Positions 2,753 to 61,167 of a stretch of DNA of 64,000 bases are shown piece by piece. Under the pieces are notes generated by a model that saw nothing but the letters and a program-made list of their open reading frames with translations, had not been told where the DNA came from and did no database searches. The DNA is from an uncultured Gammaproteobacteria bacterium (GTDB lineage Bacteria; Patescibacteriota; Microgenomatia; Woykebacterales; RBG-16-39-9b): NCBI GenBank assembly GCA_964367355.1, contig CAYIWY010000001.1, forward strand, positions 35,307-99,306, given 5' to 3'. Made by a program: the position numbers and the translations under genes. Each line of letters starts with the position of its first letter. Within the stretch, counting starts at the first letter, position 1.

Positions 2753-2812
2753 GGGGAGGGTTTCGAACTTGTTCATCATGAACAGGCGCGAACCCTCCCT
2801 TTCTCTTTTTTA
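2753..2812 (+). terminator. Rho-independent terminator with a nested hairpin and a T-run
   Basis: GGGGAGGGTTTCG..CGAACCCTCCC is an 11-bp stem with one bulge. It encloses an inner TGTTCATcATGAACA palindrome and is followed by TTTCTCTTTTTT. Confidence 0.7.
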
Positions 2813-2925
2813 ATCACCTTTCTTTCAGACGAAGAAAGGTTTTTTTGTTTCCAATAATAGCAAGAAACTTGACTTCGAGGCCAAATATGATATTATAGGG
2901 CAGTAGTTACCCACAAATTGGAAAA

Positions 2926-3351
2926 ATGGGTAAAGGAGTTGGGATATTGGAAGTACAGTGCGCAGCTGACATTTTGGAAACTAGAGTCAGACTTAATGGC
3001 AGTATAATCTGCGAGGCAAAAAACTCATATCTGGAAACGAAACCATTAAGAACCTGGGCACGGATGGCCTCCGACCAACATTTCCCAGAATTGGGAAATG
3101 CACTATCTGAATACTATGGATCGATATTCAGATATGTGAAAGGCGCACGTAACAAGCTTTTCACTGGGTCGCTAACTCGCAAGGAAGCGCTTTTCGGCGA
3201 GTATGGGCCTTATGGAGAAAATCATGAAGCTTTGGTTACTTTCAACCGAATGATAGATAGTTTGGTGGTGGTAACCTACCAAGATCTCTCTGCGGAAGAT
3301 TTTGACTACGTGAAAAAGATTTTACAACAAATTGGATTGAGAGAAATTTAA
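2926..3351 (+). CDS. hypothetical protein
   Basis: 141-aa ORF with host-like GC. No recognised motifs. Confidence 0.45.
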   Translation: MGKGVGILEVQCAADILETRVRLNGSIICEAKNSYLETKPLRTWARMASDQHFPELGNALSEYYGSIFRYVKGARNKLFTGSLTRKEALFGEYGPYGENHEALVTFNRMIDSLVVVTYQDLSAEDFDYVKKILQQIGLREI

Positions 3352-20386: not shown

Positions 20387-21118
20387 ATGCCAGAATTGTC
20401 CGATAGACGCAAAGAACTACTGAAAATAATTATTGACGAATATATCGAAAGCGCCGAACCCGTTGGTAGCGAAACGATTGTCGAGAAGTACAATCTGGGT
20501 GTTTCTCCAGCAACGGTACGAAACGAAATGGTTGCTTTAACTAAGGAAGGGTTTTTGAAGCAACCGCACACTTCAGCCGGCCGTATCCCGACCCCAATGG
20601 GTTTGAAATTCTATATCAGCGGGTTGATGAAGGAAACCTCAATGCCAGTTCGAGACGAGGTTACGATCAAAGAATCACTTTGGGATCAGAGGTTTCAGTT
20701 TCACAAATTGCTTCGCCAAGCCGCCCGCGAACTCTCCTCCCAAACCGGAAATTTAGCCGTTGCCTACAGTGAGGATGGGGATATGTTCTATTCTGGGGCC
20801 GCCAATATTTTGGAAATGCCAGAATTTTATGATATTGATTTAACTAAAGCAGTTTTGGCAATGATTGATAGCCAAGAAACTATTTCTGAGATTTTCGATC
20901 GAGCAGTTGGTGAAGAACCAGTACACATATTGATTGGCGAAGAAATTGGTCAGGCTTATTTAGAATGTTGCGGAGTAGTTTTTGCTCCCTTTGGTTCTGG
21001 TAAAAAAAATGCTGGGGTTATTGGGGTGATTGGTCCTGCAAGAATGCATTTCAACCGAGTGATTCCGACGGTTCGTTACTTTGGTGATCTTTTAACTGAG
21101 CTCTCACGTAGTTACTAA
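20387..21118 (+). CDS. hrcA: heat-inducible transcription repressor HrcA
   Basis: N-terminal MPELSDRRKELLKIIIDEYIESAEPVGS winged-helix region. SD AGAGGAGG precedes the ATG at 20387. Confidence 0.85.
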   Translation: MPELSDRRKELLKIIIDEYIESAEPVGSETIVEKYNLGVSPATVRNEMVALTKEGFLKQPHTSAGRIPTPMGLKFYISGLMKETSMPVRDEVTIKESLWDQRFQFHKLLRQAARELSSQTGNLAVAYSEDGDMFYSGAANILEMPEFYDIDLTKAVLAMIDSQETISEIFDRAVGEEPVHILIGEEIGQAYLECCGVVFAPFGSGKKNAGVIGVIGPARMHFNRVIPTVRYFGDLLTELSRSY

Positions 21119-21188
21119 AATTCTGATTTTTGCAGGAATGTAACGACTACTAAAATTCTGATTTTTGCAGGAATGTAACGACTACTAA
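21113..21188 (+). repeat. perfect 35-bp tandem duplication (2 copies plus a 6-bp partial) spanning the hrcA stop codon
   Basis: TACTAAAATTCTGATTTTTGCAGGAATGTAACGAC occupies 21113-21147 and again 21148-21182, followed by TACTAA. Confidence 0.9.
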
Positions 21189-21192
21189 TAGA

Positions 21193-21633
21193 ATGAAAAA
21201 GACAAAAAAAGACACAGATAATAAAACAAGTGAACTCGAAAGCCAGCTCAAAAGAGCTCTTGCTGATTATGCAAATTTACAAAAAAGAACTGAGGAAGAA
21301 AAAAGAGCAGTTGTAAAATTTGGTAACGTAGTTTTGATAGCAAAGTTTTTGGATATACTAGATCACCTTGAGGAGGCACAAAAAACAATTAATTCTGAAG
21401 GTTTGGAACTGGTTATCAAAAAATTTAAAGATACCTTAGATTCTGAAGGAGTAAACGAAATTTCAACTCAAGGGGAAGTTTTTGATCCGGTCAAACATGA
21501 GGGTATTGCAACAGTCGAAGGTAAAAAGAATGGTGAAATTGCACAGGTTTTGCAAAAAGGCTACGAGCTGGATGGAAAAGTCATTAGACCAGCCAGGGTA
21601 CGAGTTACTACAGCTGCTACAGTAAAGGAATAA
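21193..21633 (+). CDS. grpE: nucleotide exchange factor GrpE (short)
   Basis: Coiled-coil N-terminus plus a C-terminal GrpE-like domain (FDP..HEG). Sits between hrcA and dnaK in conserved order. Confidence 0.8.
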   Translation: MKKTKKDTDNKTSELESQLKRALADYANLQKRTEEEKRAVVKFGNVVLIAKFLDILDHLEEAQKTINSEGLELVIKKFKDTLDSEGVNEISTQGEVFDPVKHEGIATVEGKKNGEIAQVLQKGYELDGKVIRPARVRVTTAATVKE

Positions 21634-26124: not shown

Positions 26125-26502
26125 ATGGTAGAGGTGCAAGTGGCAACTCCAAGTGGAGAACCGGTAGTGGAAGCCTGGTCGCACACTTCGAACGGAGACC
26201 GATTCCGGCCTTGGGTTTCGGAAGATCACTGGGTTTTTAAAGCAGGGGAAGATTGGGAGATAGTTCGTGACGAAGCTTCAGCAGTTGTATTTCGAATTCA
26301 TCCTGGGCATCATCTGATGTTCCCCGGCAGTGAGTTTGTGGCGACTACTGAGGACGGTCGAAAGATCCGCACTCGAGGTACGTTGACCACAGAAGGTGAC
26401 GAACCTGTGGATCTGGTTATGAAGGGCCACCGTATCAAGGCCTACCGTAGTCCGGACCACCGAAACTTTCCACCCCGGCCAATCGACATCGACAACTGGT
26501 AG
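26125..26502 (+). CDS. hypothetical protein, GC-rich (island B)
   Basis: Strong SD AGGAGGTG. Preceded by an extended -10 TGgTATAAT (26079-26087) and followed by a terminator. About 58% GC against a host of about 38%. Confidence 0.6.
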   Translation: MVEVQVATPSGEPVVEAWSHTSNGDRFRPWVSEDHWVFKAGEDWEIVRDEASAVVFRIHPGHHLMFPGSEFVATTEDGRKIRTRGTLTTEGDEPVDLVMKGHRIKAYRSPDHRNFPPRPIDIDNW

Positions 26503-27556: not shown

Positions 27557-27955
27557 TTATCCCGGGACCAATTCTTTTTCTCCGGTCAGGACTAGCTCGA
27601 CGATCTCGTGAGACTTAAGCGCATCCGAGCGTTGATTACACGCTGACTGAGCCCTTGCCTTCGCAACCTGGTCAATTTCTTCGAGGGACCAAGAAGAATC
27701 CATCTCTGTTTCAAACGAAAACTTTCTGCCGGAAACGGTTTCGACGTTAACAACGACTTTGTAATGGTGTTGAGTAACAGCCGGTTGATCCATAACTCTC
27801 CTTTCGGCAACCTCCGGTTCTAGCCGTCTTGTCCGTACCGCTGGTTCGCGGTTGTCGCAAGCAGGGCTACCCCAACCGTTGTCCTCATCTCCTTCACGAC
27901 GTGCAGGTTCTCGATTATCACAAGCGCCCCATCCCATTAGACCTCTCCTTTCCAA
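27557..27955 (-). CDS. hypothetical protein with a tandem Cys-containing repeat (GWGACDNREPA and GWGSPACDNREPA)
   Basis: The direct repeat sits in the N-terminal third. The C-terminal part appears globular. GC-rich. Confidence 0.5.
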   Translation of the reverse strand: MERRGLMGWGACDNREPARREGDEDNGWGSPACDNREPAVRTRRLEPEVAERRVMDQPAVTQHHYKVVVNVETVSGRKFSFETEMDSSWSLEEIDQVAKARAQSACNQRSDALKSHEIVELVLTGEKELVPG

Positions 27956-31528: not shown

Positions 31529-32623
31529 ATGAATAAAAGAGATTACTATGAAATTCTAAAAATTTCAAAAAATGCTTCTTCCGAGGAGATTAAGAAAGCG
31601 TACCGTAATTCAGCACGGAAGCATCATCCTGATGTGGATAAAACTTCCGGTGCGGAAGAGCGTTTTAAAGAAATTAACGAGGCTTATCAAGTACTTTCGG
31701 ATCCACAGAAAAAATCAGCTTACGATCAGTTTGGGCATAGTGCATTTTCTGGCGGTGGGGCTCCAGCTGGAAATGGTGGCTATTCTTACGGCGGGCAAGG
31801 TGTAAATGTTGATTTTGATTTTAGTAACTTCCGTGATCCGTTTGAAATTTTTAATGAGTTTTTTGGTGGGGCTTCTCCGTTTGGTGGCAGCACTCGTCGG
31901 GGTGGGCCAAAACGAGGGGAAGATCTTCATTACGAGATAACTATCCCCTTTGAGCAAGCTGCCTTTGGTGTTGAGAAAAAAATTGAAATACCACGCTATG
32001 AAACTTGTAGCGACTGTTCCGGTTCTGGTGCCGAGAGAGGTTCAAAAAAGACTACTTGTAGTACTTGTGCTGGTCACGGCCAAGTTCAGCAGGCAACCAA
32101 TTCAATTCTCGGACAAATTTTAACCAACCGTATTTGTCCTTCTTGTCACGGGGAGGGTGAAGTAGTTGAAAAGAAATGTCCAAAATGTAAGGGGAGTGGG
32201 CGAGTTAAAAACGTCAAGGAAACTGAAATCAAAATTCCAGCTGGAGTTGATGATGGCGATACCGTTCGTTTTGCCAATCTTGGTCAGGCTGGAGAAAAAT
32301 CCGGAAGTTATGGTGATCTTTATATAACAATTAGAGTTGCAGGGCATCGGGATTTTAAGCGAGCCGGTTACAATATTTATCTCGAACAATCAATTTCTTT
32401 TACTCAGGCAGCATTAGGCGATACAATCGAGGTTCCAACGTTAGATGGAACTGTTAAGTTAAAAATCCCTGAGGGGATTCAGTCCGGAACCGATATAAGA
32501 ATAAAAGAAAAAGGAATTAAACATGGAAATAATCGCGGCGACCAGTTTGTCAGAGTAAAAATAATTACCCCAACCAAACTATCCGGGAAACAAAAAGACC
32601 TTTTGAAAGAATTCGAAAGCTAA
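31529..32623 (+). CDS. dnaJ: chaperone DnaJ
   Basis: J-domain with HPD, a G/F-rich region, four CxxCxGxG zinc-finger repeats, and a C-terminal domain. Confidence 0.95.
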   Translation: [364 protein letters not shown]

Positions 32624-32646
32624 TTTATTGGAAGTTAGATAAAGAT

Positions 32647-32688
32647 AGGCAGGCCGTATCGAGAAGATCGATAGAGGGCCTGCTTTTG
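32647..32688 (+). terminator. Rho-independent terminator after dnaJ
   Basis: AGGCAGGCC..GGCCTGCTT followed by TTTG. Confidence 0.6.
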
Positions 32689-32917
32689 ATTGGGACAGGA
32701 ACAGATGGGGTCGTCCAGTTAGGGGCGATCTGTTACTGTCTCGTTGATCGAACGGAGACTAGTTTTCAGTTAGATCAATTTTGGTCGCAGCGCTGGTGGT
32801 TGGTGTGAGTCCAGATATCTTCGGATTTCCGGCAAACCAAGCACCAGCGCCGCTTCTATAAGAGAGCAACATCTGCCCCCGAATAGCTGAAGCAAGAAAA
32901 ACTTGCGGATCTCTCTT

Positions 32918-32992
32918 TGGAGCGGAAGACAGGATTCGAACCTGTGACTTGCTGTTTACGAAACAGCTGCTCTACCACTGAGCTACTTCCGC
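32918..32992 (-). tRNA. tRNA-Thr (anticodon CGU), CCA encoded
   Basis: Reverse complement GCGGAAGTAGCTCAGTGGTAGAGCAGCTGTTTCGTAAACAGCAAGTCACAGGTTCGAATCCTGTCTTCCGCTCCA folds as a cloverleaf with anticodon loop TTCGTAA. Confidence 0.85.
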
Positions 32993-32994
32993 GT

Positions 32995-33070
32995 TGGCGA
33001 CTACGGAGGGATTCGAACCCACGATCCTACGCTGTCAACGTAGTGCTTTAAACCACTGAGCTACGTAGCC
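32995..33070 (-). tRNA. tRNA-Val (anticodon GAC), CCA encoded
   Basis: Reverse complement GGCTACGTAGCTCAGTGG..CTACGTTGACAGCGTAG..GGTTCGAATCCC..CGTAGTCGCCA. The anticodon stem CTACG/CGTAG is perfect, with loop TTGACAG. Confidence 0.85.
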
Positions 33071-33100
33071 TTTACTCCGAAAATTCGGAGGAATCTCTTT

Positions 33101-33176
33101 TGGTGGGGCAGACAGGAGTCGAACCTATAACCTCTTGCACGCAGTGCAATTGCTCTCCCAATTGAGCTACCACCCC
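33101..33176 (-). tRNA. tRNA, probably Ala (anticodon UGC); loop parse ambiguous
   Basis: Reverse complement GGGGTGGTAGCTCAATTGGGAGAGCAATTGCACTGCGTGCAAGAGGTTATAGGTTCGACTCCTGTCTGCCCCACCA. Cloverleaf with T-loop TTCGACT. The anticodon loop ACTGCGT gives UGC but carries C33 and a G3-C70 pair, so the identity is uncertain. Confidence 0.65.
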
Positions 33177-33196
33177 GACCTCTTCACAATCGCAGA

Positions 33197-33261
33197 TTTT
33201 ATTGCTTGCTTGAAGTCTTGTCAAGATAGTCTTGACCAAGAAACCTTTTGGTGGTATAGTG
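33197..33261. promoter_or_regulatory. bidirectional promoter built on a near-perfect palindrome TTGTCAAGAtagTCTTGACca
   Basis: Minus strand: TTGACA, 17 bp, TAAAAT (33225 down to 33197), driving the tRNA operon. Plus strand: TTGACC (33233-33238), 17 bp, TATAGT (33256-33261). Confidence 0.55.
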
Positions 33262-33279
33262 CAAGAAAGTTTAATTAGA
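33218..33279 (+). repeat. 62-bp direct repeat copy A (promoter/operator segment); copy B is at 33905-33966
   Basis: CTTGTCAAGATAGTCTTGACCAAGAAACCTTTTGGTGGTATAGTGCAAGAAAGTTTAATTAG is about 87% identical to copy B. Confidence 0.85.
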
Positions 33280-33283
33280 TGGT

Positions 33284-33321
33284 TTTTAAAAAAAGACGGG
33301 TCTACTTAGTAAAACCCGTCT
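33284..33321 (-). terminator. Rho-independent terminator of the 33329-33784 gene
   Basis: GACGGGT..ACCCGTC hairpin followed by a T-run on the minus strand (plus-strand AAAAAAA at 33289-33295). Confidence 0.65.
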
Positions 33322-33328
33322 CGTGTGT

Positions 33329-33784
33329 TCAGCCACCACCGCGCTCAGATAGCTCAGCAGCAATTCTCTCCAACCTCTCTTGCTCCGGACACTCATGAAG
33401 CAAATATGCGATTCGAAGAACCCGCTCGGCTTCAATTTCGTCGCAGAGAAATTCAGCAAACAGGCATCCTAGAGGAGGCATCCTTTCGAATAGATGAGAA
33501 TCTGCAGCGAAGTACACCACTGCAATTTCCAGATCTTCAGCAGTTCTTAACCATCCTGAAAGAAGCCTTTTGATCTCGGTTCGATCAAGTTCAAGAATTC
33601 TCTTTAGGACGGTTTGTGACTCTTCCGGTAACTCACCTTCGACCATAAGCTCTAATTGCTCATAATCGAAAAGAGTGCCAATAAGACCACTCATCTGTGT
33701 TTGGTGAACAGTAAGTTTGTATCCCAGAACCCGGCTTTTCTTAAATTCGTTCTCGGCTAAAATTCTATCCTTTATACCGGGCAT
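33329..33784 (-). CDS. hypothetical protein, GC-rich (island C), lodged between duplicated promoter copies
   Basis: 151-aa ORF with higher GC than its flanks. Carries its own terminator. No recognisable motifs. Confidence 0.5.
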   Translation of the reverse strand: MPGIKDRILAENEFKKSRVLGYKLTVHQTQMSGLIGTLFDYEQLELMVEGELPEESQTVLKRILELDRTEIKRLLSGWLRTAEDLEIAVVYFAADSHLFERMPPLGCLFAEFLCDEIEAERVLRIAYLLHECPEQERLERIAAELSERGGG

Positions 33785-33904
33785 AGATCTCCTCCTTACT
33801 TAAGAACCTAAGTAAAGTAATTTTAACAGAGCATAAGGTAAAGTCAATACTATGGGGCTAAAATATATTGAAAATAGGTAAGGTGTGGTGATTCTAGCGA
33901 GCTA

Positions 33905-33966
33905 CTTGTCAAGATAGTCTTGACCAAAAAACCTCTTGGTGGTATATTGCAGCTAAAGTTAATTAG
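33905..33966 (+). repeat. 62-bp direct repeat copy B, containing the nusA promoter TTGACC, 17 bp, TATATT (33920-33948)
   Basis: CTTGTCAAGATAGTCTTGACCAAAAAACCTCTTGGTGGTATATTGCAGCTAAAGTTAATTAG. It is followed by two hairpin plus T-run elements (GTGGGAATAAAATCCCAC-TTTTTT; CTTTGCgaaGCAAAG-TATACTTTTTT) in the nusA leader. Confidence 0.8.
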
Positions 33967-34083
33967 CTTGGATTATTAAGTGGGAATAAAATCCCACTTT
34001 TTTGATTCAGATCAAAAAAGCAGTCTTTGCGAAGCAAAGTATACTTTTTTGATTCCAAAGTTTATTTTTAGGAGGAATTTTAA

Positions 34084-35169
34084 ATGGCTTTAAGAACAGA
34101 ATTTGCAGCAGCATTAAATCAAGCAGCGGCCGAGCGTGGAGTTGAGGCCGCCGAAGTAATCGAAATTATTAAAGAAGCAATCAAAGCAGCTTACCGCAAA
34201 GATTACGGTGGGGAGCTCGAAGAACTTGAAGTTGAGCTTGATACCGAACAAGGTGGTGTCAAAGTTTCCAGAAATGGTGAGGATGTTACACCCGATGGTT
34301 TTGGACGAATTGCCGCCCAAACTGCCAAGCAGGTTCTATTGCAAAGAATTCGCGAAGCAGAAAAAGGTGCGATTCTAACTGAGTATGAGAAAAAAGTCGG
34401 AACAATTGTAAATGGAATGATCCAGAGACTAGAAGGTCCGAATGTGGTTGTTGATATTGGTAAAGCAGAAGGGATTATGCCGACTTCTGAAAAAATCCCA
34501 GGTGAGGATTTGCGCTTAAACCAAAGAGTTAAATTTTATATTGTCGGGATAAAAGAATCACAGCGCGGTCAAGACATAATTGTTTCCCGGGCTCACAAAG
34601 GCCTAGTTGAAGGTTTATTTAAACTTGAGGTTCCGGAAATCGGCTCAGGAATGGTGGAAATAAAAGGTATCGCCCGGGAAGCCGGAAGCCGCAGCAAAGT
34701 TGCTGTTTCTTCCCGTCAAGCTGGAGTCGATCCAGTGGGAAGTTGTGTTGGTCAAAAAGGGGTCAGAGTCCAAGCAGTAATTGCTGAACTTGGTAATGAG
34801 AAAATCGATATTATTCAATTCAGTGATGATCCAGCAAAATTTATTGCCACATCTCTTTCCCCGGCTCAAGTTGGTAAAGTTGCTCTCAATGAAGAAGAAA
34901 AAACAGCTCATGTTGAGGTTCCTGAGGATCAACTGTCGTTGGCGATTGGAAAAGATGGTCAAAATGTTCGACTAGCTGCAAAGTTAACTGGTTGGAGAAT
35001 TGATATTAAAGGAGCTGAAGGTTTGGGAAGTTTGAGGGATGAACCTGAGAAAGTAACAAAAAAAGTAGCGGTAAAGGAAAAGAAAACTAAAAAAGTAGTT
35101 GTAAAGAAAAAAACAACTAAGAAAACTATTAAAACCAAGAAAAAGAAATCTGCAGAAAAAGAAGATTAA
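34084..35169 (+). CDS. nusA: transcription termination/antitermination factor NusA
   Basis: S1 and KH domains and a Lys-rich C-terminal tail. Conserved nusA-infB order. Confidence 0.95.
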   Translation: MALRTEFAAALNQAAAERGVEAAEVIEIIKEAIKAAYRKDYGGELEELEVELDTEQGGVKVSRNGEDVTPDGFGRIAAQTAKQVLLQRIREAEKGAILTEYEKKVGTIVNGMIQRLEGPNVVVDIGKAEGIMPTSEKIPGEDLRLNQRVKFYIVGIKESQRGQDIIVSRAHKGLVEGLFKLEVPEIGSGMVEIKGIAREAGSRSKVAVSSRQAGVDPVGSCVGQKGVRVQAVIAELGNEKIDIIQFSDDPAKFIATSLSPAQVGKVALNEEEKTAHVEVPEDQLSLAIGKDGQNVRLAAKLTGWRIDIKGAEGLGSLRDEPEKVTKKVAVKEKKTKKVVVKKKTTKKTIKTKKKKSAEKED

Positions 35170-35196: not shown

Positions 35197-36669
35197 TTGG
35201 CAGTGGAACACAAAATTAAAGATACAAAAGCAAATAGCCTTAAGCGAGCTCCAGTGGTTACGATCATGGGGCATGTTGATCATGGAAAAACAACCCTCCT
35301 AGATTACATCCGCAAAACCAAAGTTGCGCAGCGTGAACATGGTGGAATTACCCAACATATCAGTTCCTATCAAGTCGAAAGCGACGGTCAGAAAATAACC
35401 TTTATTGATACTCCAGGCCACGAGGCATTTTCAGCCATGAGGTCAAGAGGAGCTAATGTGACCGATATTGCCATATTGGTTGTTGCAGCTGATGACGGTG
35501 TGATGCCCCAAACCAAAGAATCAATCAGCCATATTAAAGCTGCGAAAACTCCAATGATTGTGGCAATAAATAAAATGGACTTACCCGGCGCAAATGTTGA
35601 CCGAGTTAAGAAAGGTTTAGCTGACAACAGCGTTTTAGTTGAAGGTTACGGGGGAGATGTAGTGGTTGTACCGGTTTCAGCAAAAACTGGTTCTGGAGTT
35701 GATGATTTGTTGGAAATGATAAAACTAGTTGCGGAGATTGCTGAGCTTAAAGATGAAAGCAAAAAGCCGTTTGAAGCAGTGGTGATCGAATCTTCCCTTG
35801 ATAAATTTAGAGGTCCAGTAGCAACTATTTTAGTTAAAAAAGGCAGTGTTAAAATTGGTGATTTTGTTAAAACCCCAACTATAAGTGGGAAAGTTAAAGC
35901 TTTGATTGCTAGTAGTGGTGAGCAAGTTAAAGAAGGCACAGTTTCGATGCCGGTTCAGATCTTGGGTTTGGAAAAAGTACCAGCGGTTGGGGATATTTTA
36001 AACCTTGGAGGTAAATCAGAGATTATTTTTCAGGAAAAAGAAATTACTAGAAAAACCGCTTTAGAAAAACTCGCAGAGCCAAAAACTACGGAAATTAATT
36101 TGGTCATTAAAGCCGATGTTGCTGGCTCACTCGAAGCAATTAGCGCAGCATTAGAAGCTTTGGGGGATAGTGAGCACAAAATTAATATAATCCAAAAGGA
36201 AACCGGGGAAGTGAGTGAATCAGATGTTCTACTAGCAGCTGCGACCAAAGCAATAATTATTGGCTTTAATGTCAAAGTTTCCAAAGCAGCTGAAAAACTT
36301 TCTGATGAAGAGAAAGTGATGATTAGAACTTTCAATATTATTTACCAACTTCTTGACGAACTCAAAGAGGGTTTGGAAATGTTGGTTAATGCTAAAAAAG
36401 AGCAGGTACTTGGAAAAGGAAATGTTATCCAAGTTTTTGATACTAGTTATGGTCGAGTGGCGGGTACAAAAGTTACTGAAGGTCGATTAAATAAAGGTGA
36501 TCGTATTAATCTGTATCGAGATGAGGAACAAATTATCTCAGCAAAAATAAAAACGATCAGGCATCTTCAAGAAGAAGTTAACACGGCCAAAGAGGGTTTG
36601 GAATGTGGGGTTTTGCTTGAAGGAAAAGCCGAGGTTGCAGTCGGTGATATAATTGTAGCGATCGCTTAG
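35197..36669 (+). CDS. infB: translation initiation factor IF-2 (short N-terminus)
   Basis: [20 protein letters not shown] and NKMD G-motifs. Confidence 0.95.
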
Positions 36670-49005: not shown

Positions 49006-49788
49006 ATGGTTACTGCCACAGCCGCAAAGAACGGCGCATCTGCCGAACCTGTGACATCGCGCCGCGACACTCGCGCCAGCAAGGTTTCGGCGGTCAAGAC
49101 AGAGCAATCGTCCAAGTCCAACACGGGTTGGATGCACGTCAGGATTCACTGTGTCGGGCGCACCCCCCTGCTGATGGATCCCATGACTGATGGGACCATC
49201 GAGGAGCTGGAAACTGGGGTTCGCAAGCCGATCAACAAGCAACTGACGCGTTACCAGGTCTGCGAACCCAAAGTCATGCACAATGCTGCTGGCTTGATCG
49301 CGGTCCCCATCGACAACTTCTTCGCCTGCACTGTCGAGGCCGGCCGGAGAATCCCGTTTCAGAAGATGAGCAAGATGAGTACGGCTACCAGCACGACTTT
49401 GCCGGAGTACTTCCGCTTCATCTCGGAGGATCTGGTACTACTCGACAATAAGGGTAAGCCACTGCCGGACTGGGACGGGAAGTCGAAGAACGGCAGCTGG
49501 AGCGTCGATGTGCGCCGTGGTTGTCTCAAGGATGGCACGGCTGTGCCGATCCGGCGGCCGAAGTTCGACCACTGGGAATTCGATGTCGAGTTCGAGTATG
49601 ACATGGGAGTCATCTCGGACCAGAAGCTTCTCGATCTGATCAAGATCGCCGGCACGACCATGGGGCTGTGCAGCTTCCGGCCGAACAAGAAGGGTCGCTT
49701 TGGCACCTTTGCGATGACGCGCTGGGAAGAGATCGCTCGCCGTGAACAGGATACCGAGGTTGAGATAGTCAGGTTGAAGGCCGCGTAA
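49006..49788 (+). CDS. hypothetical protein (island D gene 1), GC-rich; possible glycine-rich loop near the C-terminus
   Basis: SD AAAGGAA. 260 aa. Low-complexity N-terminus. C-terminal GTTMGLCSFRPNKKGRFGTF is loosely reminiscent of a RAMP/Cas6 G-rich loop; this is speculative. Confidence 0.55.
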   Translation: MVTATAAKNGASAEPVTSRRDTRASKVSAVKTEQSSKSNTGWMHVRIHCVGRTPLLMDPMTDGTIEELETGVRKPINKQLTRYQVCEPKVMHNAAGLIAVPIDNFFACTVEAGRRIPFQKMSKMSTATSTTLPEYFRFISEDLVLLDNKGKPLPDWDGKSKNGSWSVDVRRGCLKDGTAVPIRRPKFDHWEFDVEFEYDMGVISDQKLLDLIKIAGTTMGLCSFRPNKKGRFGTFAMTRWEEIARREQDTEVEIVRLKAA

Positions 49789-50042: not shown

Positions 50043-51304
50043 GGGCTGGATCCGATTATCGCAAGACGATCGGATCTGCCGACACTAACTACCTCGGCGT
50101 TGATGAGTGCGTTTCACTGACGTGAACTGCTTTGCACTTTAATGCGCTCGAGTTAAGTAGAGGGCTGGGGATCCGGAGAGAAATCAAAGGATCTCTGCCA
50201 ACCTTTTGTTTTCAAGTAGCCTGGGGCGGACTTCATAACAGTGGAGTTTCCTGGGGTCACCTGCAGGGCTGGGTTCCGAGAGGAAACAATCGGAACCTGC
50301 CACCTTGTTGACGGACTAAGCTGACGTTCAGTGTCGAACCGTTCGGTTCAGCACGCTCACGTGCGTCAGGTTTTAGTGGGGTGCAGGGCTGGGGGTTTCC
50401 TTGGGAAACTAGGGAAACCTCTGCCAACCAATGTTCGGTGCGCAGTTACCTCTCGTATTGATCGCCTTCCTGCTGTTGGCTACTCTGTCGTTTGGTGACC
50501 TGCTGTAATCTGAAGGGCTGGGTCCGTTTACAGAAATGTATCGGACTTGCCAAATTTGTGGTCTAGGGTGCGGTTTGGTTAACTCCACTAGCGTGCGGAA
50601 AACTGGCCTACACCTAACTGACGTCAGGGGCTGAGGACCCGGAGAGAAATCAAAGGGTCTTTGCCAACAAACTCAATTCGTTCCCCTGCTGTGAAGATGG
50701 CTTAACTTCAGTTAAGTTCTCCTTACTTACGTGGGGTATCGTGGAGTATGGGGCTGGGGATTTGCTCTGGAGAAATCTATTCAAGTCCCTGCCAACAACT
50801 TAAGTTGAACTTAGCTGCAGCTGACTTCTGTTCGCTGGGCTATTGTTACGTGCAGGGCTGGGTCCGTTTACAGAAATGTATCGGACCTGCCAAACCAATT
50901 TTGATGAATTGATTCTGAAAACATAAATTTCAAAACCAGCTCATCAGGGTTTTGAGAGAGTTATCAAGTGCGCTAGACCACTGTTCCCTAAAGCACCCAA
51001 GGGTTCAGCCCACTTTCGTGGTCTTCGCAATGGTACTGGGCTGGGGACCCGGAGAGAAATCAAAGGGTCTCTGCCAAAACGCTTTCAACTTAGGTACTGT
51101 ACCCCGTTCTTCGGTAAACAGTCCTGTCGCATTGTTTAGGGCTGGGGAGTTGGTTAACTTTGGTTTTCTAACTCCCTGCCAACCGAATTAGATTTTCGAG
51201 GGGTAGTGTTGTGTATGGCAGCGTCATGCTCCGTCTGCTTCAGTACACCAGGTTGCCCCATAGTTCAGGACTGCCCCCGATGTTTCGAAAGAATTATCGG
51301 GGGT
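50043..51304 (+). repeat. array I of structured repeat units with the pattern CAGGGCTGGG, variable hairpin, CTGCCAAC (11 units)
   Basis: Units: 50043-50083, 50162-50202, 50266-50304, 50386-50428, 50515-50554, 50628-50668, 50751-50796, 50855-50894, 51038-51080, 51138-51182, plus a degenerate unit at 51261-51304. Stems of 5-7 bp covary (GATCC/GGATC against GACCC/GGGTC; GTCCG/CGGAC; GGATCTG/CAGATCC; GGTTTCC/GGAAACC). Loops usually contain AGAAAT. Inter-unit segments are unique and 60-184 bp long. There is no ORF. Confidence 0.85.
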
Positions 51305-51365
51305 GTCATTTTTCAATATTTACCTAAAAAATTCTGTCCCATTTTGTAACAAGGCACTTTAACAA

Positions 51366-53213
51366 GTGACAAATAGTAAAGGAGAGGGGACAACAGTGCC
51401 TTCATCGCAACATCGTGGTAGGCCTTCTTTCGAGGAGCTTACCTCCGCCTGGCCAAGGCGGCGACTTGGACCCATGTGGTCCGAACAAGAAGAAGCCTTT
51501 GAGGTCATTGCCAAACATGGCAGTTGTACCTTGGAGGTACCGACTGGTATGGGCAAAACCGCTATCGGTTACACGACGCTCAAGGCGTTGGGCAACCGTG
51601 GTGAAGGCCCACTTTTCTACATCGTGCCGACCAAAACTTTGGTTGGACAGGTAGCTGAGATGTTTCCAGACGTCACTCCGGCCTATGGTCGGAATGAGTT
51701 TGATTGTCTCTACTACGACGAGCCGTACAAAGCGGACGAAGTCCCTTGCCTGCTATTGCAGGACTGTGTCCATCGGGTCGATCAAGAGACTGGCCGGACT
51801 GCTGGTCGAGGAGCAGAACGTTGCCCCTACTACCACGCCAAGTACCAAGCCAAACGCGATCCGAGTCGGATCGTAGTCTGCTCGATGTCGTTTTACCTTT
51901 TCACCCAGCTTTTCTCCAAGGAGTTTGAGAATCCAGCTGGTTTGGTGATCGACGAAGTTCAGCAGATGCCAGATGTGGTCCGTAATGCTCTGTCTTTTGA
52001 CATCACGGACTATCAGTTGCAACGGGCGATCAACCTACTGTCAACCACAGCTGCGGATGAAGCTGCTGGTCTCGAGATCTTTCTCGATACTATGTTGCGG
52101 ATCATTCGACTCAAGCCTTCGAAGGTGCCGGTAATGCTCGAAGATGTCGAGTTGCAGGAACTGCTGTTGGTCTTGCGAGATATTGACCGCGATGGTCTGC
52201 GTCGCAAGATCGCCGAGGGTATCCGCTCGGGCGACATTGATGTCGTCAAAGAGCGAGAAGTCCTGACCAAAGTTGAGCGACTGGTCTATGACCTGTACCG
52301 TTACGTGCGAGCGTTTGAATTTTCGCTCAGCAACGAAACACAACGGCCACTCAACTACACCTACGCAGTTTGGGACAAAGAACCAGCTGAGGGCAAAAAG
52401 GTCCACAACAAGCTGACCGTCAAGTCCTACTACGTCGCGCCGGTGATCAAGAAACTGCTGTCAGCCAATCTGACAGTGAGTTTGGGAGCGACTATCGGCG
52501 ACCCGAACGTGTTTGGTTACGAGTCAGGGATCGATCCGAGGCGAACGCCGATGTTCACTTTTGACTCGAGTTTTCCGGTCGGCAACACCCGGATCTACGT
52601 TCCGTCGGACTCCTTTAGCTTGGCGGAAAAAGAGGTCAAAAATCGTGGTAAAGCCACAATGGTCCGTCGGATGGTTCGCTCGGCCAAAACCTTCAACCAA
52701 AAAGGTGAGCGCGTGTTGTGCTTGGTCGTCTCTGACACCGAGCGGCAGCGCTTTATTCGGATGGCCACTGAAGACGATGTCAACTTCATCACTTACGGTG
52801 ATGGCGTGACCGCGCGCGAAGCTGCGGACCGCTTCCGTGCCGGAGAGGGTAAAGTCCTGCTTGGGACAGACGCCCAGTACGGCCAGGGTGTTGACCTGCC
52901 AGACGGTATCTGTCGGGTGATCTTCTACCTGCGACCCGGTTATCCGCGACCAGATGATCCTCAGACCCAGTTTGAGGAAAAGCGTTTTCGCTCACAGAAG
53001 TGGGCAATCTGGCAGTGGCGACTGATCATGAAGGCGATGCAGGTGCGCGGTCGTAACATCCGTGGTCCGGAAGACAGGGGAGTGACGATTTTCTTCGACA
53101 GCCGTTTCCGGCGTTTCCTTTTCGGAGGGATGCCCAAGTGGCTCCAGCCGTCATATCGTGGAGATCTGACACTGCAAGAGTGCATTGAGGACGCGCTCAA
53201 GGTGTTGAAGTAG
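51366..53213 (+). CDS. Rad3/XPD/DinG-family SF2 helicase with an Fe-S domain (island D gene 2)
   Basis: Walker A TGMGKT. Four Cys lie between motifs I and II (CLYY, PCLLL, DCVHR, ERCPYY). Motif II is VIDEVQQM (a DEAH-like DEVQ). The C-terminal LLGTDAQYGQGVDLPDG and QVRGRNIRGPEDRGVTIFFDSR match DinG motifs V/VI. An alternative start GTG 51396 has SD AAGGAGAGGGG. Confidence 0.8.
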   Translation: MTNSKGEGTTVPSSQHRGRPSFEELTSAWPRRRLGPMWSEQEEAFEVIAKHGSCTLEVPTGMGKTAIGYTTLKALGNRGEGPLFYIVPTKTLVGQVAEMFPDVTPAYGRNEFDCLYYDEPYKADEVPCLLLQDCVHRVDQETGRTAGRGAERCPYYHAKYQAKRDPSRIVVCSMSFYLFTQLFSKEFENPAGLVIDEVQQMPDVVRNALSFDITDYQLQRAINLLSTTAADEAAGLEIFLDTMLRIIRLKPSKVPVMLEDVELQELLLVLRDIDRDGLRRKIAEGIRSGDIDVVKEREVLTKVERLVYDLYRYVRAFEFSLSNETQRPLNYTYAVWDKEPAEGKKVHNKLTVKSYYVAPVIKKLLSANLTVSLGATIGDPNVFGYESGIDPRRTPMFTFDSSFPVGNTRIYVPSDSFSLAEKEVKNRGKATMVRRMVRSAKTFNQKGERVLCLVVSDTERQRFIRMATEDDVNFITYGDGVTAREAADRFRAGEGKVLLGTDAQYGQGVDLPDGICRVIFYLRPGYPRPDDPQTQFEEKRFRSQKWAIWQWRLIMKAMQVRGRNIRGPEDRGVTIFFDSRFRRFLFGGMPKWLQPSYRGDLTLQECIEDALKVLK

Positions 53214-53287
53214 AGAGTCAACCTGTGGCCTAGTCAAGTTAACCGAGCTGTTCTGTGGTGACTTGATGTCGGCTATTCAATTGCACA

Positions 53288-53882
53288 GGGTGGGGATCTG
53301 CTCTGGAGAAATCTATCCAGATCCCTGCCATTTTCTTTTTTCAACGAGTGCAGTTAGGCAGACAATGTCATTGTCCTGTTTACCTAACTGGTGTTCGCTG
53401 CAGGGCTGCCTCGATAAAACCGAAAGGATTTATCGGGGCGCCATTCTTTTGATAGTTTAATTTTGGAAATATTTTCAAAACTAGCCTATCAAAGAAAAAC
53501 GATATGGTATTCTTTTGTCGACGCGGCGGTCTTCAGTTCGCTAGCCCATGCTGCCGTTCGGTAGAGTCGGGAACGCTAGAGAGTACTGAACCGCAGTATG
53601 GGGCTGGGAACCTGCTCTGAGTAATCATCAGGTTCCTGCCAACGTTCACTTTCGTGCGGTTCAACAGCGTAGGGACTCGCCAACTGTGGTAAAGTTCTCT
53701 ATTGTAGTGTTAACCGCGCTGGTCTAAAGGGCTGGGGATCTGCTCTGGAGAAATCTATCCAGATCCCTGCCAATTTCACAAACTGACTCAAGCAGGGCCA
53801 TGTCCACAGGAGTTAGGTGGCCTGCGCTTTTGTCTAGTTTAGGGCTGGGTCCGATTTCAGAAATGTTTTCGGACCTGCCAAC
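53288..53882 (+). repeat. array II of the same structured repeat units downstream of the helicase (5 units)
   Basis: Units: 53288-53331 (ends CTGCCAT), a degenerate unit at 53403-53444 (similar to 51261-51304), 53601-53643, 53729-53774, 53842-53882. Units 50751-50796, 53288-53331 and 53729-53774 form one family. Units 50515-50554, 50855-50894 and 53842-53882 form another. Confidence 0.85.

Positions 53883-57777: not shown

Positions 57778-61167
<3,390 letters not shown>

Follow-up and report, generated by a model that had tools for sequence, protein, structure and literature searches.

A 62-nt promoter repeat flanks a small orphan-gene cassette upstream of nusA in a member of the Levybacteria

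The window analysed here, a stretch of 64,000 nt from contig CAYIWY010000001.1, carries between dnaJ and the nusA-infB genes a 62-nt direct repeat whose two copies enclose a 151-codon open reading frame (ORF), ORF151. NusA comparisons place the organism among the Levybacteria of the candidate phyla radiation (CPR), and the contig from which the window is taken comes from Hainich groundwater and measures 187 kb. A repeat search located the copies at window positions 33217-33278 (copy A) and 33905-33966 (copy B), identical at 54 of 62 positions (87%), and they are the sole long repeat pair of the region. A first-pass annotation of the same DNA had reported a pair about 87% identical, as found here; its position for copy B stands, and its copy A (33218-33279) lies one base too far to the right. 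From left to right the locus reads dnaJ, a spacer, three tRNA genes, copy A, a terminator, ORF151, about 120 nt, copy B, a leader, nusA and infB. The explanation that we favour, at somewhat better than even confidence, is that the repeat is a duplicated control region, that the ORF151 cassette now lies between the copies, that the two halves of the control region were divided between them, and that nusA is tuned through its leader.

The features of the locus are given below, and loci of relatives are cited by L numbers. Promoters and terminators are predictions from consensus scans; the scanned stretch gave six promoter-like matches against about two in shuffled sequence. Four of the predicted promoters in the locus are good, and the last three from left to right, but not that of the tRNA operon, have a TG-extended -10 element.

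31529-32623, plus strand: dnaJ, left neighbour of the spacer and tRNA operon.
32918-33176, minus strand: tRNA operon, with Thr-CGT (32918-32992), Val-GAC (32995-33070) and Ala-TGC (33101-33176); found by ARAGORN, Rfam tRNA scores 51-76 bits.
33196-33224, minus strand: predicted tRNA-operon promoter TTGACA-17-TAAAAT, 11 of 12 consensus matches, its -10 ending 19 nt before tRNA-Ala.
33217-33278, no strand: repeat copy A, comprising the palindrome, a nusA-type core promoter and the first ~18 nt of a nusA-type leader, ending GTTTAATTAG.
33232-33260, plus strand: predicted orphan nusA-type promoter of copy A, TTGACC-17-TATAGT with TG extension, directed antisense into ORF151.
33285-33925, minus strand: low-divergence cassette of ~630-640 bp, in which ORF151 is accompanied by its terminator and promoter, by ~90 nt of non-coding upstream sequence and by the palindrome containing the nusA -35.
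33293-33322, minus strand: predicted intrinsic terminator of ORF151, an 11-bp stem followed by a T-run, kept in L062-L065 and L067.
33329-33784, minus strand: ORF151, 151 aa, an all-helical orphan with C-terminal ERGGG and invariant H97, C114, H130 and C132.
33820-33847, minus strand: predicted promoter of ORF151, TTGACT-16-TAAAAT with TG extension, ~30 nt before the ORF151 Shine-Dalgarno sequence.
33905-33966, no strand: repeat copy B, comprising a relic left arm, the genuine nusA promoter and the start of the leader.
33920-33948, plus strand: predicted nusA-infB promoter TTGACC-17-TATATT with TG extension, kept in about ten relatives.
33978-34055, plus strand: nusA leader, with hairpin 1 AAGUGGGAAUAAAAUCCCACUU and U6 (33978-34005), an alternative hairpin (33994-34023) and hairpin 3 (34025-34039) followed by a U-run.
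34084-35169, plus strand: nusA (Pfam), ATG at 34084.
35197-36669, plus strand: infB (Pfam).

The duplication is genuine, because seven of seven independently assembled contigs with an identical NusA, from Hainich groundwater and other sequencing runs, reproduce both copies at 99.9-100% identity to the window; an assembly artefact as the source of the repeat is thereby ruled out. L069 likewise carries both copies. It diverges from the window inside tRNA-Val, which is probably a coverage-1 assembly chimera at the T-loop. Copy A is intact in L063, L069 and L072-L078 and decayed in L065.

The two copies each hold a palindrome, TTGTCAAGA-tag-TCTTGACCA, whose arms pair at eight of nine positions and which consists of two opposed -35 hexamers 7 bp apart plus three extra complementary bases per arm. 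The tRNA-operon promoter takes its -35 from the left arm of copy A and has its -10 beyond the repeat, and the promoter scan confirmed the bidirectional promoter described in the first-pass annotation. The pair has -35 and -10 elements on opposite strands with 11 and 10 of 12 consensus matches; genes follow on both sides, and both promoters are kept in relatives. A homologous tRNA promoter (cacaat.gcagattttat..-17-ttgtcaa) stands upstream of the tRNAs in L001 and L063. Copy B was correctly taken for the nusA promoter: in L001, L002 and L061-L068 its -35, TG extension and -10 stand at a constant distance upstream of a conserved hairpin of the leader. The plus-strand promoter of copy A is decayed in relatives (-35 TTAACC in L063; -35 TTGATC and -10 TAGATT in L065), and on these alleles it therefore appears to have no conserved function. 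Since it is near consensus in this strain and the terminator scan predicted no plus-strand terminator before 33978, it would yield an RNA antisense to ORF151 that runs into the nusA leader. The arrangement resembles known back-to-back sigma-70 promoters in being a near-consensus pair on opposite strands with closely opposed -35 hexamers, and differs from them in that the unit is doubled, with one promoter per copy serving a gene.

We compared the locus with those of relatives. L001, with a NusA 85% identical, is the closest in the species-representative genome collection, and it supplies the empty site that the first-pass annotation had proposed to look for: dnaJ, minus-strand tRNAs of another set, the homologous tRNA promoter, one nusA promoter with its leader, and nusA, with no ORF151. 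Six relatives lack the tRNAs and have ORF151 divergent from nusA beside a single intact promoter copy. L061 (NusA 94%) and L062 (88%) read dnaJ, ORF151, one promoter, nusA; L064, L065 (NusA 92.5%), L067 and L068 have other left neighbours, then ORF151, one intact promoter and nusA. The duplicated layout of the window recurs in L063 (ORF151 97%), but with one odd tRNA. The decayed copy A of L065 has no tRNA and adjoins the terminator; its local alignment scored 19, where 500 shuffles reached no more than 15, and its right-hand sequence is of the A type. A duplicated arrangement without ORF151, which the first-pass annotation had set against an insertion, was not found among the relatives examined. 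We also observed a small gene (79 aa in L068; motif ...QDDGDI...GGGG.SPNT...) at 2760-3065 on the minus strand of L001, between dnaJ and the tRNAs. By eye it was judged homologous to the gene of L068 that follows ORF151 immediately downstream; L068 lacks the ORF151 terminator.

ORF151 is a genuine gene under selection, and its product, which is cytoplasmic and helical, belongs to an orphan family. The gene's ratio of non-synonymous to synonymous substitution (dN/dS, 0.13-0.30) indicates purifying selection, and its variable sites fall 37/27/76 across the three codon positions, as in coding sequence. The AlphaFold2 model has a mean predicted local distance difference test score (pLDDT) of 73. 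No match to the family was found in Pfam, NCBIfam, PHROG or PADLOC, and none in viral contigs or phage genomes, which removes a phage origin from consideration. Exhaustive HMMER searching found nine clusters in 1.84 billion representatives, and a profile search found 12 proteins in 5.8 billion; close homologues of ORF151 number only eight in 5.8 billion proteins. A metagenome scan for further cassette loci recovered only the same strain, and the contexts of the distant homologues L066, L070 and L071 were uninformative about the cassette setting. The gene's own terminator, claimed in the first-pass annotation, is borne out, and its own promoter is kept in every homologue locus read for it, even that of L066, where the homologue is 53% identical and the context unrelated. 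The left arm of copy B was considered as the ORF151 promoter and rejected: there is no -10 at 16-18 nt (ACCACA stands there), and ORF151 has its own conserved promoter. As a guess of low confidence, the protein may be a protein-binding accessory factor.

Several observations on the family stand apart from its history. The C-terminal ERGGG is present in nine of nine sequences of the close alignment and in three of five more distant homologues, about 35% identical (P0010, P0011 and P0013), and is missing from P0014 and P0016. Besides the His/Cys quartet, which is invariant in the close set, the family conserves an HECPE motif. The run of glycines at the C-terminus is reminiscent of tails that become conjugated or processed, but no enzyme that could act as a partner was seen. 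The label 'GC-rich', which the gene had been given, is overstated: its GC content of 45.2% exceeds the 40.8% of the window but reaches only the 85th percentile of stretches of equal size, and its GC at third codon positions is 0.39 against 0.28-0.30 in its neighbours. A strongly GC-rich island is ruled out by this percentile and by ORFs of 54-63% GC elsewhere in the window. The truly GC-rich ORFs are those at 1781-2617, 26125-26502 and 27557-27955 (63%, 53% and 51% GC against 41%), which are better candidates for foreign DNA than ORF151.

The distinctive property of the cassette is its low divergence. It is 86-90% identical between genomes in which the synonymous sites of nusA, dnaJ and infB are saturated. 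Between the window and L061, L062, L064 and L065, the proportion of differing synonymous sites (pS) in ORF151 is 0.25-0.42, corresponding to 0.3-0.6 substitutions per synonymous site (dS); for nusA, dnaJ and infB in the same genome pairs pS is ~0.70, with dS ~2 or undefined. Sliding identity is 85-95% from ~33290 to ~33920, non-coding DNA included, with sharp edges, and outside this block it is 60-70% in the 17-nt promoter spacer and ~75-80% in nusA. The ranking of relatives by ORF151 identity, L062 > L064 > L065 > L061, is the reverse of that by nusA. Because the cassette is well conserved where flanking synonymous sites are saturated, it has a separate history, in which Levybacteria lineages passed it among themselves horizontally long after the divergence of their core genes. 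Dual coding was tried as the cause of the low dS and rejected, the codon-position pattern being normal. An 80-codon frame antisense to ORF151 is open in six of seven sequences, as expected at such low divergence; from the sequence pattern, synonymous constraint from an overlapping function at ORF151 is unlikely. The term 'island' is thus right in the sense of exchange, for which GC content is a weak signal.

The repeat copies themselves carry traces of age. Their right-hand 24 nt are distinct alleles (TATAGT GCAAGAAAGTTTAATTAG in copy A, TATATT GCAGCTAAAGTTAATTAG in copy B). The A-type allele is common to the decayed copy A of L065 and the B-type to L067 and L061; because each is common to other lineages, both alleles are old. 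Since L065 keeps a decayed copy A, the duplication too is old, predating lineages whose nusA synonymous sites are saturated. The copy A spacer of L063 is identical to the copy B spacer of the window, so the left 38 nt were identical in the two copies when the window and L063 split, and would have been homogenised after the duplication. An insertion accompanied by promoter duplication, as first suggested, accordingly survives in part: the empty site in L001 and the distinct history of the cassette agree with it, and the event was neither recent nor particular to this genome, six relatives carrying ORF151.

We propose the following course for the duplication. In the original state, the leftward tRNA promoter and the rightward nusA-infB promoter would have been arranged back to back, with 7 bp separating their -35 hexamers. 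A circularised fragment containing a promoter copy, the terminator, ORF151 and its upstream DNA would then have undergone a single reciprocal (Campbell-type) recombination with the resident promoter of an L001-like site, giving tRNAs, copy A, terminator, ORF151, copy B and nusA in that order. Afterwards copy A would have kept its left arm as the tRNA -35, leaving its nusA-type promoter an orphan directed antisense through ORF151 towards nusA, and copy B would have kept its right arm as the true nusA -35, its left arm becoming a relic.

Several points weigh against this course. The -35 boxes of L001 are separated by 33 extra nt, and the tight palindrome was seen at no empty site. Among L061-L068, the eight non-identical relatives with the cassette, six have just a single intact promoter copy and lack tRNAs, and in the relative with the closest NusA (L061) dnaJ directly abuts ORF151; an ancestral duplicated state requires several independent losses of copy A and the tRNAs. 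The relatives are mostly metagenomic contigs of 1-4 kb and the locus is mosaic, the leader of L063, for example, being unlike that of the window though its cassette is 94-97% identical. Neither a recombinase nor terminal inverted repeats nor a circular form of the cassette was found, and the promoters, terminators and antisense transcription are all consensus predictions.

The leader between copy B and nusA is 117 nt long and has hairpins resembling terminators (fold z = -4.1). Its GGG...CCC hairpin, followed by a U-run, is kept in L001, L002, L061-L065, L067 and L068. The published rimP-leader attenuator of rimP-nusA-infB operons has a GGGc...gCCC terminator stem and a U stretch, and NusA has been proposed as its effector (Naville and Gautheret 2010, PMC2965389). 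Hairpin 1 (GUGGGaauaaaaUCCCAC followed by U6) appears to fit that description: it is a short GGG...CCC terminator hairpin with a U-run in a nusA-infB 5' leader, kept across relatives, and its stem at 33978-33999, between the promoter and the nusA ATG, has the position of the attenuator. The differences are that no rimP gene is present here and that the stem is GGGa...uCCC, the GGG/CCC being kept in the relatives read and the c/g pair not. Because no Rfam match to an attenuator family was found for the leader, even at E ≤ 10 on 151 nt, we do not claim membership. By analogy, nusA is more likely to be controlled by its leader terminator hairpin or hairpins, in autoregulation of the NusA type known from Escherichia coli, than by a protein at the palindrome. 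The leader (33974-34085) also gave a sub-threshold Rfam match to the Streptococcus sRNA SSRC34_1 (26.7 bits against a gathering score of 64; E = 0.035 on 151 nt), a family that may itself be a nusA or rimP operon leader. In Escherichia coli, the metY-nusA-infB region has a tRNA gene and several promoters and terminators upstream of nusA (PMC6511841). The locus described here similarly links tRNA genes to a nusA-infB control region with multiple promoters and terminators, with the difference that the E. coli tRNA is co-transcribed upstream of nusA and the tRNAs here are divergent.

The palindrome had been put forward as an operator coupling tRNA and nusA-infB expression. In that proposal a dimeric regulator would bind TTGTCAAGA-tag-TCTTGACC and co-control the tRNA operon and nusA-infB, the site having been duplicated with the promoter. 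Its nearly complementary 9-nt arms, three bases longer than the -35 hexamers, would suit such a protein, as would the overlap with two -35 boxes, a classical repressor position; the site is kept in L062, L063, L065 and L067, and L062 has a perfect GGTCAAGAtagTCTTGACC. Against this stands the fate of the arms. At single and B copies the right arm, GTCTTGACC, which is the nusA -35, is invariant across relatives, and the left arm drifts (TTGTCGTGA in L061, CTTTTGAGA in L064, TTGTTGAGA in L068, TGGTCAAGA in L062), decaying in L061, L064 and L068 as fast as the adjoining non-coding DNA. At copy A the converse is seen: L063 keeps the left arm, the tRNA -35, with the right arm decayed, and the right arm is decayed in the L065 copy as well. 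The two half-sites are thus not kept together beyond what the hexamers need. Nor is the site found at other genes. A search of the 64 kb with up to three mismatches returned copies A and B and one three-mismatch match at 59962, 0.27 being expected by chance. In the 71 fetched loci the core occurs only beside ORF151 homologues, with none in the other 66 (~500 kb) and none at the nusA promoters of L001, L002 and L003. No regulator gene was seen adjacent to the palindrome, ORF151 has no recognisable DNA-binding domain, and the conserved leader terminator already supplies a known route of nusA control. We therefore regard an operator as very doubtful. The palindrome arises automatically because TTGACA and TTGACC point away from each other, and because each arm decays where unused and is invariant where used, these would be two independent -35 boxes. 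Judged on this pattern of conservation, the palindrome is most simply explained as two back-to-back -35 boxes and not as a regulator binding site.

The origin of the arrangement admits other readings. The tRNAs and the accompanying non-coding RNA could be the newcomer and the ORF151-nusA pair with one promoter the resident: a leftward unit of structured RNA, tRNAs and a -10 would have joined a copied 62-bp piece 3' of ORF151 through TTGTCAA microhomology, thereby gaining a -35. This would account for the six relatives without tRNAs, which include the two with the closest NusA (L061 and L065), and of which five lack any copy A and L065 keeps only its decayed one. It also agrees with the varying tRNA content of the site, with the fact that copies A and B share a lineage-specific spacer absent from the orthologues in L061, L062, L064, L067 and L068, and with the left edge of the repeat, which falls exactly at TTGTCAA, also the tRNA -35 in L001. 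We nevertheless consider it fairly unlikely, though still a live rival. A single recombination inserts only DNA lying between direct repeats, so the tRNA module is not the piece that was inserted there and the incoming piece is ORF151; L065 has a decayed copy A and no tRNA, L001 has tRNAs beside nusA without the cassette, and the anomalously low divergence lies in the cassette and not on the tRNA side. Alternatively, the cassette could be a mobile element, non-autonomous and site-specific, that attaches at the palindrome of the nusA -35, with the 62-bp repeats as attL and attR; the attachment site might, for example, be a 7-nt core between the inverted 7-nt arms TTGTCAA and TTGACCA. Such an element would leave a history younger than and incongruent with the flanks, a target that is always the same, and discrete edges on both sides, as are seen here in at least four contexts of promoter spacer and in five of left neighbour. 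We hold this to be improbable, given that the left repeat is missing from most copies: both are present in the window, L063 and L069, the left one is decayed in L065, and none stands at the left in L061, L062, L064, L067 and L068. There is no recombinase in the cassette or nearby, its sole gene being ORF151; terminal inverted repeats were looked for at the cassette ends and not found; the few family members lack viral matches; and the 53% homologue L066 sits in an unrelated context without the palindrome. A bolder version, in which a minimal non-autonomous unit homes to the nusA -35 through the palindrome and spreads among Levybacteria, with ORF151 acting on the transcription machinery or being conjugated through its glycine tail, seems to us a long shot; if true, it would explain why the cassette is always divergent from nusA.

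Further observations concern the tRNA side and more distant parts of the window. All three tRNA genes encode CCA. The tRNA set at the dnaJ-nusA site varies, with three in the window, one odd one in L063 and four different ones in L001 (3379-3749). One of the L001 tRNAs carries an insert of ~37 nt and is 110 nt long (Rfam 51 bits), and its 'Pro-GGG' tRNA is the same as the Thr-CGT of the window in all arms but the anticodon arm, with A at position 33. The single tRNA of L063 (854-929), called 'Ser-AGA', has C at position 33. The 288-nt spacer between dnaJ and tRNA-Thr (32630-32917; 48% GC) has a minus-strand RNA fold of -106 kcal/mol (z = -7.7 against shuffles) and no match to an Rfam family; its core is nearly identical in L063, and L065 seems to keep a fragment at its left end. 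The spacer may be a structured non-coding RNA that is transcribed together with the tRNAs, and its part at 32645-32690 may simply be the dnaJ terminator. Elsewhere, 50157-53881 holds several families of 45-65-nt repeats with the pattern GGGCTGGGGAxC...GAAATC...CTGCCAA, surrounding GC-rich ORFs at 49006-49788 (58% GC) and 51366-53213 (54% GC). Upstream of dnaK, a perfect tandem of a 35-nt unit, TACTAAAATTCTGATTTTTGCAGGAATGTAACGAC twice, occupies 21113-21182, flanked by an ORF that ends at 21118 and another that begins at 21193.

The locus is an ordinary rearrangement with one odd feature, combining known kinds of arrangement: divergent promoters and a small island between direct repeats. Integrative-element islands in the 3' ends of tRNA genes are flanked by direct repeats, attL and attR, that rebuild the target. 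The cassette is like them in being an accessory gene with a separate history between direct repeats that keep both neighbours functional, with an empty site in a relative. It is unlike them in having no integrase, in being an insert of one gene and ~630 bp, in targeting a promoter and not a tRNA end, and in having one repeat in most relatives. The palindrome is a cautionary case, a striking symmetry at a duplicated promoter being explained by two divergent -35 boxes, and the locus offers a clean natural example of a duplicated bidirectional promoter that has been subfunctionalised, each copy losing its unused half. The odd feature is an orphan gene whose synonymous divergence is about five-fold lower than that of the flanking essential genes and whose identity ranking among relatives is reversed; together these point to horizontal transfers of gene size between diverged Levybacteria, for which the sequence reveals no evident mechanism. 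The gene that had been described as GC-rich and inserted has long been a neighbour of nusA in these uncultured groundwater CPR bacteria.

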